Below, piece by piece: positions 59,499-59,709 of a DNA stretch of 64,000 nucleotides. The notes under the pieces are model-generated. The model did no database searches. It was not told the origin of the DNA and was given only the letters and a program-made list of their open reading frames with translations. The DNA lies in NCBI RefSeq assembly GCF_003334405.1, contig NZ_QOWM01000008.1; one strand, 5' to 3'. The stretch comes from Escherichia coli (GTDB lineage Bacteria; Pseudomonadota; Gammaproteobacteria; Enterobacterales; Enterobacteriaceae). Each line of letters opens with the position of its first letter. The stretch's first letter is position 1. The position numbers were made by a program, and so were the translations under genes.

Positions 59499-59541
59499 GA
59501 TTCTTCGCCTTTGGTTTGTTTTCCGCTCGTTATCAAAGCGT

Positions 59542-59653
59542 AAAATATAATGACCACCATTCGAATCTGTATGCAAACTAAATGTTTGTCAAATGTTAAA
59601 TTGAGTTTGCAAAAATGAAAACCCACTGCTAGATTGAAAAAATATTGAACATA
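59542..59653. promoter_or_regulatory. puuA–puuD divergent control region with two PuuR-box-like 15-mers
   Basis: aaaatataatgacca (59542-59556) and aaaatattgaacata (59639-59653) resemble the PuuR recognition motif as I recall it. Confidence 0.35.
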
Positions 59654-59709
59654 AAGGTCATTTAAAGCGCAGTAATGGCGATAATTTAGTCCACTTTGTG
59701 AGATTGAGC

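Follow-up and report, generated by a model that had tools for sequence, protein, structure and literature searches.

In Escherichia coli, the 211-bp spacer between puuA and puuD very probably controls both divergent operons, puuAP and puuDRCBE, by way of a set of AT-rich operators that lie in the same orientation and are bound by the repressor PuuR; they are here called boxes I, II and IV and, probably, box III. This reading rests on the identity of the genes, on the number of motif copies and their statistics, on positional conservation between species and on the position of box II, which spans the mapped transcription start of puuD. The locus is the published PuuR-puuA/puuD system itself and, as such, is already known. 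It has been reported that PuuR represses the puuAP and puuDRCBE operons (PMC9397018), that it binds to the puuA-puuD spacer, in which there are four DNA-binding motifs, and that it is released when putrescine is high (PMC9951944).

The puuA-puuD locus and the copies of the PuuR box

In the window, that is, the whole stretch of 64,000 nucleotides that was analyzed, positions 59000-60200 show no difference from E. coli K-12 MG1655 (100% identity). According to the annotation of that strain, puuA, which codes for glutamate-putrescine ligase (472 aa, 100% identity, translation checked), lies on the minus strand at 58080-59498, and puuD, which codes for gamma-glutamyl-GABA hydrolase (254 aa), lies on the plus strand at 59710-60474. 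The start codon of puuA ends at 59498 and the ATG of puuD is at 59710, which confirms the limits (59499-59709, 211 bp) that a preliminary description of this DNA had given for the divergent intergenic spacer. Directly downstream of puuD is the repressor gene, puuR (60501-61058, plus strand, 185 aa), followed by puuC, puuB and puuE, while puuP and ymjE are found beyond puuA. Both PuuD (574 bits) and PuuR (NF007408, 385 bits) score above the cut-offs of their NCBIfam equivalog models, and the N-terminal part of PuuR (residues about 5-70) is an XRE-type helix-turn-helix that matches solved proteins of the XRE family. Together, the identity to MG1655, the position of puuR and the NCBIfam matches bear out the earlier assignment of the spacer as a puuA/puuD control region. 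The spacer is AT-rich, with a G+C content of 34% vs. 50% in the window.

The 59000-60200 region was found in 4,372 of 5,426 complete E. coli genomes, and the puuA-puuD segment is apparently absent from roughly one fifth of the strains. In E. coli SW071611 and two sister wastewater strains, the same region is 34 bp longer than in K-12. An insertion in the spacer was ruled out in these three strains, since the extra length falls within puuA, annotated there as a frameshifted gene, and the spacer still measures 211 bp. Additionally, a scan of positions 59300-59900 against Rfam gave no credible RNA element; its sole match, to a CRISPR repeat model, was dismissed (17.5 bits for a cut-off of 39, E = 0.54).

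Two 15-mers of the spacer had been described as near-identical PuuR-box-like sites. Each of them occurs a single time, the first (AAAATATAATGACCA) at 59542-59556 and the second (AAAATATTGAACATA) at 59639-59653. They are not near-identical, as only 8 of their 15 positions are shared in the register in which they were quoted, essentially the leading AAAATAT. With the second one shifted leftward by 2 nt (59637-59651, AAAAAATATTGAACA), 12 of 15 positions agree with the first, and a direct pair of 15-mers of this similarity inside the spacer alone is equalled in 33% of dinucleotide-preserving shuffles. On the evidence offered at that time, the repeat is indistinguishable from AT-rich noise.

A different picture is obtained with the 15-bp recognition sequence of PuuR, which we take to be AAAATATAATGAACA, reportedly the sequence described by Nemoto et al. 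in 2012 (J Bacteriol 194:3437). In the whole 64-kb window, only three sites match this consensus with two mismatches or fewer, all of them on the plus strand, starting at 59542, 59637 and 59714. The first, predicted PuuR box I (59542-59556), has one mismatch (14/15). The second, predicted box II (59637-59651), has two (13/15), vs. 9/15 in the register quoted earlier, which was 2 nt off. The third, predicted box IV (59714-59728), has none; it is the single exact occurrence of the sequence in the window, and it is located at the start of puuD. In composition-matched shuffles of a 232-bp region made up of the spacer and the first codons of puuD, a procedure that keeps the AT-rich composition, 0.008 such matches are expected, and three were found in none of 20,000 shuffles.

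As the consensus was presumably built from these very sites, a match to it is partly circular and, for this reason, the boxes were also compared in pairs without any consensus. Boxes I and IV share 14 of 15 positions, a similarity reached by 0.2% of the 232-bp shuffles (P about 0.002). The significance of the repeat, therefore, appears only once the first codons of puuD are included. In the papers that could be searched in full text, the consensus, its reverse complement and box I gave no match; on PuuR footprints or operators, these papers offer secondary statements without sequences, and the supplement of a paper on a Corynebacterium glutamicum biosensor names its promoter constructs without motif sequences. 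Outside the control region, the next-best match in the window to a weight matrix constructed from the boxes of the orthologous loci is found on the minus strand at 29251-29265 (AGTAAATAATGAACA, 14.7 bits). It was judged a chance match, as it overlaps the ribosome-binding site and the ATG (in an ATG-AAC context) of an 83-aa open reading frame.

The interpretation of the 15-mers as PuuR boxes is consequently supported, both by the matches of box I and of the shifted box II and by the conservation of their position in about 40 species that carry puuR. The two sites are there and a motif scan recovers both of them within the spacer (59542 and 59637), but they are not the only ones: the best copy, the perfect match at 59714, is found in the coding sequence of puuD, beyond the interval that had been described. 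The earlier observation holds in essence, lacks precision in its details and is of an ordinary kind.

Conservation and architecture of the operators

For comparison, a genome scan with PuuD was used to gather enterobacterial species, about 40 in number, in which the arrangement of puuA, puuD and puuR is retained; the genera include Escherichia, Klebsiella, Raoultella, Citrobacter, Enterobacter, Buttiauxella, Cedecea, Pluralibacter, Hafnia and Serratia. Throughout this set the spacer measures 205-239 bp, and boxes I, II and IV are found at fixed offsets from the ATG of puuD (near -167, -72 and +5, respectively). At least three motif matches (four mismatches or fewer) are present at conserved offsets in all 41 rows with the three genes, i.e., about 40 species and the K-12 reference. 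Mean column conservation is 0.95 in box I, 0.93 in box II and 0.89 in box IV, and 0.70 in the unassigned part of the spacer. The invariant cores of the three boxes are ATATAAT(G/T).CCA, AATA(T/A)TGA(A/G)C and ATATA(A/T)T..ACA, respectively. In box I, ATATAATG.CCAC is conserved at 95% or more, at a fixed position, in 40 species, and in box II the sequence AATATTGAAC is conserved across the 40 species. Upstream of puuD homologues in loci without puuR, 33 of 38 sequences have no motif, a control that is confounded by their higher G+C content.

The position of box IV deserves separate consideration, as it covers codons 2-6 of puuD (ATG GAA AAT ATA ATG AAC A), i.e., +74 to +88 of the transcript. 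In this stretch, codon 4 is the rare isoleucine codon ATA in 39 of 39 species, vs. 10.7% ATA among the other isoleucine codons of puuD. At codon 3, the third position is T, likewise in 39 of 39 species, while AAT makes up 26% of asparagine codons elsewhere. The third positions of codons 3-6 are frozen, except for a G/T alternation at codon 5 that tracks a Met/Phe difference, and those of codons 8-13 vary freely. Such frozen synonymous positions argue for a constraint acting at the level of DNA, for which selection of AT-rich codons after the start would be a partial alternative. The latter possibility, that this one box is kept for translation (as an AT-rich, unstructured start region or for an N-terminal peptide that is required) and that PuuR does not bind it, seems unlikely. 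It would fit the location of the box within the coding sequence, the frequency of AT-rich codons after start codons and the conservation of the amino acids N-I. However, AT-richness would permit ATT besides ATA and leaves the invariant C of codon 6 unexplained, and the exact 15/15 match to the consensus, the 14/15 identity to box I and the 18-bp dyad frame that both boxes have in common also speak against it. A PuuR operator embedded in the first codons of puuD is, thus, the reading that we prefer for box IV.

The dyad frame just mentioned emerges from the weight matrix of the orthologous boxes. With this matrix, matches are also obtained on the reverse strand, offset from boxes I and IV by 3 nt in the upstream direction (mean scores of 12-13 bits over the species), and both boxes can consequently be read as 18-bp imperfect dyads of the form TG-N3-A.TATA.T-N3-CA. 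In box I the extended site spans 59539-59556, where the reverse-strand match at 59539 indicates the dyad symmetry; in box IV it spans 59711-59728 and takes in the TG of the puuD start codon. Box II is less symmetric than these two. A helix-turn-helix dimer would more naturally recognize an 18-bp dyad than a 15-mer that lacks symmetry.

Three clear copies of the box are thus counted in the region, together with one degenerate and conserved candidate, which is a weak match, while the literature speaks of four motifs. This candidate, block E (TGGCGATAATTTAGTCCA, plus strand, 59676-59693), occupies +36 to +53 of the puuD leader and was taken as a possible fourth site because four motifs are counted in the secondary literature (PMC9951944). 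Its ATAATTT..CA has a conservation of about 90% or more; the block reads TGGCAATAATTTAGTCCA in many species and ..ATAATTTCGAACA in Serratia. As in boxes I and IV, an AT-rich center is framed by TGG and CCA/ACA. The match to the weight matrix is weak (mean of 6.6 bits, on the reverse strand), and 6 of 15 positions agree with the 15-mer consensus. Judging from its conservation and frame, block E is probably a degenerate box III that belongs to the PuuR operator set. A sigma-54 promoter was also considered for this block. Such promoters have GG at -24 and GC at -12 at a fixed spacing (TGGCAC-N5-TTGC), and the candidate was rejected because, although TGGC is present, GT (in E. coli) or GA (in Serratia) stands where the GC at -12 is required. 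The main text of a sigma-54 regulon paper cited for the puu cluster makes no mention of puu genes.

From start to start, boxes I and II are 95 bp apart, II and III 42 bp and III and IV 35 bp; the first two spacings amount to 9.0 and 4.0 helical turns. In the numbering of U00096.2 (window position plus 1,299,434), the predicted sites correspond to 1,358,976-1,358,990 (box I), 1,359,071-1,359,085 (box II), 1,359,110-1,359,127 (block E) and 1,359,148-1,359,162 (box IV). In Buttiauxella sp. A111, a single case, 10 bp (about one helical turn) are inserted immediately after box II, while the distance between boxes I and II stays at 95 bp. The spacings and this insertion, which keeps the phase, suggest an oligomer or loop of PuuR. 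As a whole, we regard as tentative, and somewhat doubtful, the proposal that the functional operator is a dyad of about 18 bp, TG-N3-AATATAAT-N3-CA, present in four copies that include the leader site at 59676-59693 and codons 1-6 of puuD, and that the spacings reflect a phased PuuR oligomer or loop over both divergent promoters.

The ArcA site and the two promoters

Block C (59571-59613), which lies in the center of the spacer and is its most conserved block there, does not belong to the PuuR boxes. Park et al. 2013 (PMC3798270) listed for puuD an ArcA box, atgtttgtcaaatgttaa, and a site for ArcA-P with four direct repeats, ATGCAAACTAAATGTTTGTCAAATGTTAAATTGAGTTTGCAAA, and both can be located in the window: the four-repeat site at 59571-59613 on the plus strand and the core box at 59582-59599. 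The same work reported direct repression of puuA and puuDR by ArcA and a strong ArcA ChIP-seq peak at the puuA-puuD spacer. Inside this site there is an inverted repeat, TGCAAACTAAAT/ATTGAGTTTGCA (TGCAAAC...GTTTGCA, 59572-83/59600-11). Block C and its inverted repeat, therefore, were dropped as PuuR candidates. The ArcA site shares the spacer with the PuuR operators and accounts for its most conserved block, but it concerns a different protein and a different motif and does not overlap boxes I and II.

It could also be proposed that the boxes themselves belong to another protein, such as ArcA, FNR, IHF, H-NS or Fis, instead of PuuR. Sites for ArcA and FNR have been reported in the spacer (PMC9397018), the ArcA peak is strong, and nucleoid proteins are attracted to AT-rich DNA. 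Nevertheless, the ArcA site lies separately, between boxes I and II, and an ArcA box consists of at least two TGTTA-like direct repeats with a center-to-center spacing of 11 bp, which boxes I and II do not have; they were consequently rejected as ArcA boxes. Furthermore, the motif accompanies puuR in all of the about 40 loci, with at least three matches in each, and is largely absent where puuR is missing (a control confounded, as noted, by G+C content). We therefore consider an assignment of the boxes to a protein other than PuuR extremely unlikely.

Relative to the mapped start of puuDR, the ArcA site extends from -70 to -28 (PMC3798270, Table S6), which puts the start of puuD at position 59641 of the window. 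The hexamers that we infer for this promoter (59607-59641, plus strand) are TTGCAA at -35 (59607-12) and TAGATT at -10 (59630-35), separated by 17 bp and accompanied by a C at -13. The -10 region, CTGCTAGATT, is invariant in 36 of 40 species. Since rpoS dependence of puuA and puuD has been reported, it may be added that a TAGATT with C at -13 would fit it. Relative to the mapped start, box II runs from -4 to +11.

For puuA, "no TSS" is entered in the data of Park et al. (PMC3798270), and two candidate promoters can be drawn on the minus strand. The first, P(a) (59564-59592), would consist of TTGACA at -35 (59592-59587), 17 bp and CAGATT at -10 (59569-59564), with a predicted start near 59557; TTGACA occurs in 28 of 40 species, and positions 2 and 6 of the -10 are A and T, respectively, in all 40. 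The alternative, P(b), would combine TTGCAT (59576-59571), 18 bp and CATTAT (59552-59547), the latter conserved in 36 of 40 species, with a predicted start near 59540. Either of them would place box I between -10 and about +19. The ArcA site overlaps the putative -35 regions of both divergent promoters.

The core of the box resembles a -10 hexamer. Box I contains a perfect TATAAT at 59546-51, and a promoter scan flags a match to the sigma-70 consensus, TTGTGA-16-TATAAT (10/12), at 59696-59723, the -10 of which is the core of box IV. A promoter there was taken as spurious or non-productive, because its start would fall inside puuD; the match shows that the PuuR core mimics the hexamer.

From this resemblance it might be argued that the AT-rich boxes are not repressor sites, but promoter elements (the TATAAT of boxes I and IV as -10 and the A-tracts as UP elements) or only low-complexity spacer. 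In addition to the two TATAAT sequences, this would be in line with the 34% G+C of the spacer, with the fact that boxes I and II are mutually no closer than shuffles allow and with CATTAT on the minus strand, which, in 36 of 40 species, is a possible -10 of puuA. However, there is no usable or conserved -35 upstream of the plus-strand TATAAT of box I, a promoter at box IV would start within the coding sequence, and conservation runs past the hexamer into G.CCA, TGAAC or.ACA. Besides, there are three copies with the same orientation and a fixed spacing in 40 species, and the literature puts PuuR on this spacer (PMC9951944). An overlap between operator and -10 is in any case compatible with binding by PuuR and does not replace it. 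Promoter elements or low-complexity sequence alone are, consequently, a very unlikely explanation of the boxes.

A model of regulation and its relation to known systems

With boxes I, II and IV read as PuuR operators, the following model can be proposed. PuuR, an XRE-type helix-turn-helix repressor that senses putrescine, is, according to the literature, bound to the spacer at low putrescine and represses both operons, its own gene included. Box II lies over the start of puuD and, according to the predicted geometry of the puuA promoter, box I would lie on its core or just downstream of it. Due to these two positions, bound PuuR should exclude RNA polymerase from both promoters or trap it there. 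Boxes III and IV, in the leader and start-codon region of puuD, may add cooperative binding or a roadblock to elongation. A rise in putrescine lowers the affinity of PuuR for DNA and derepresses both operons, puuR included. Independently of PuuR, ArcA-P bound at 59571-59613, over both putative -35 regions, would shut the locus down under anaerobic conditions.

There is no biological difference between these operators and those of K-12 (puuA-puuD, Nemoto et al. 2012): locus, organism and flanking genes coincide, with an identity of 100%. In contrast, the 18-bp dyad reading and the assignment of a fourth site to 59676-59693 are proposals of the present analysis. In a wider context, PuuR can be compared with XRE-family repressors at divergent promoters, such as those of the phage CI/Cro type, with solved homologues that align with its N-terminal domain (including C.BclI, a controller of a restriction-modification system). 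As in these examples, the puu system has multiple operators, which lie over the mapped start of puuD and probably over the promoter core of puuA, as well as autoregulation and operators that can be read as imperfect dyads. By contrast, PuuR has a C-terminal domain for ligand sensing and responds to a small molecule, and its operators are unusually AT-rich, have one orientation and, in one case, are embedded in coding sequence.

As this is a characterized repressor-operator system in the best-studied bacterium, the importance of these observations beyond correct annotation is small. Their added value lies in the corrected register of box II and in the finding of the best copy of the operator inside the coding sequence of puuD, where it constrains synonymous codons in about 40 species. 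Additionally, a map is now provided that parts the PuuR boxes from the ArcA site and from the promoter elements. As the PuuR system is already in use for putrescine biosensors, such a map could help to trim their promoters.
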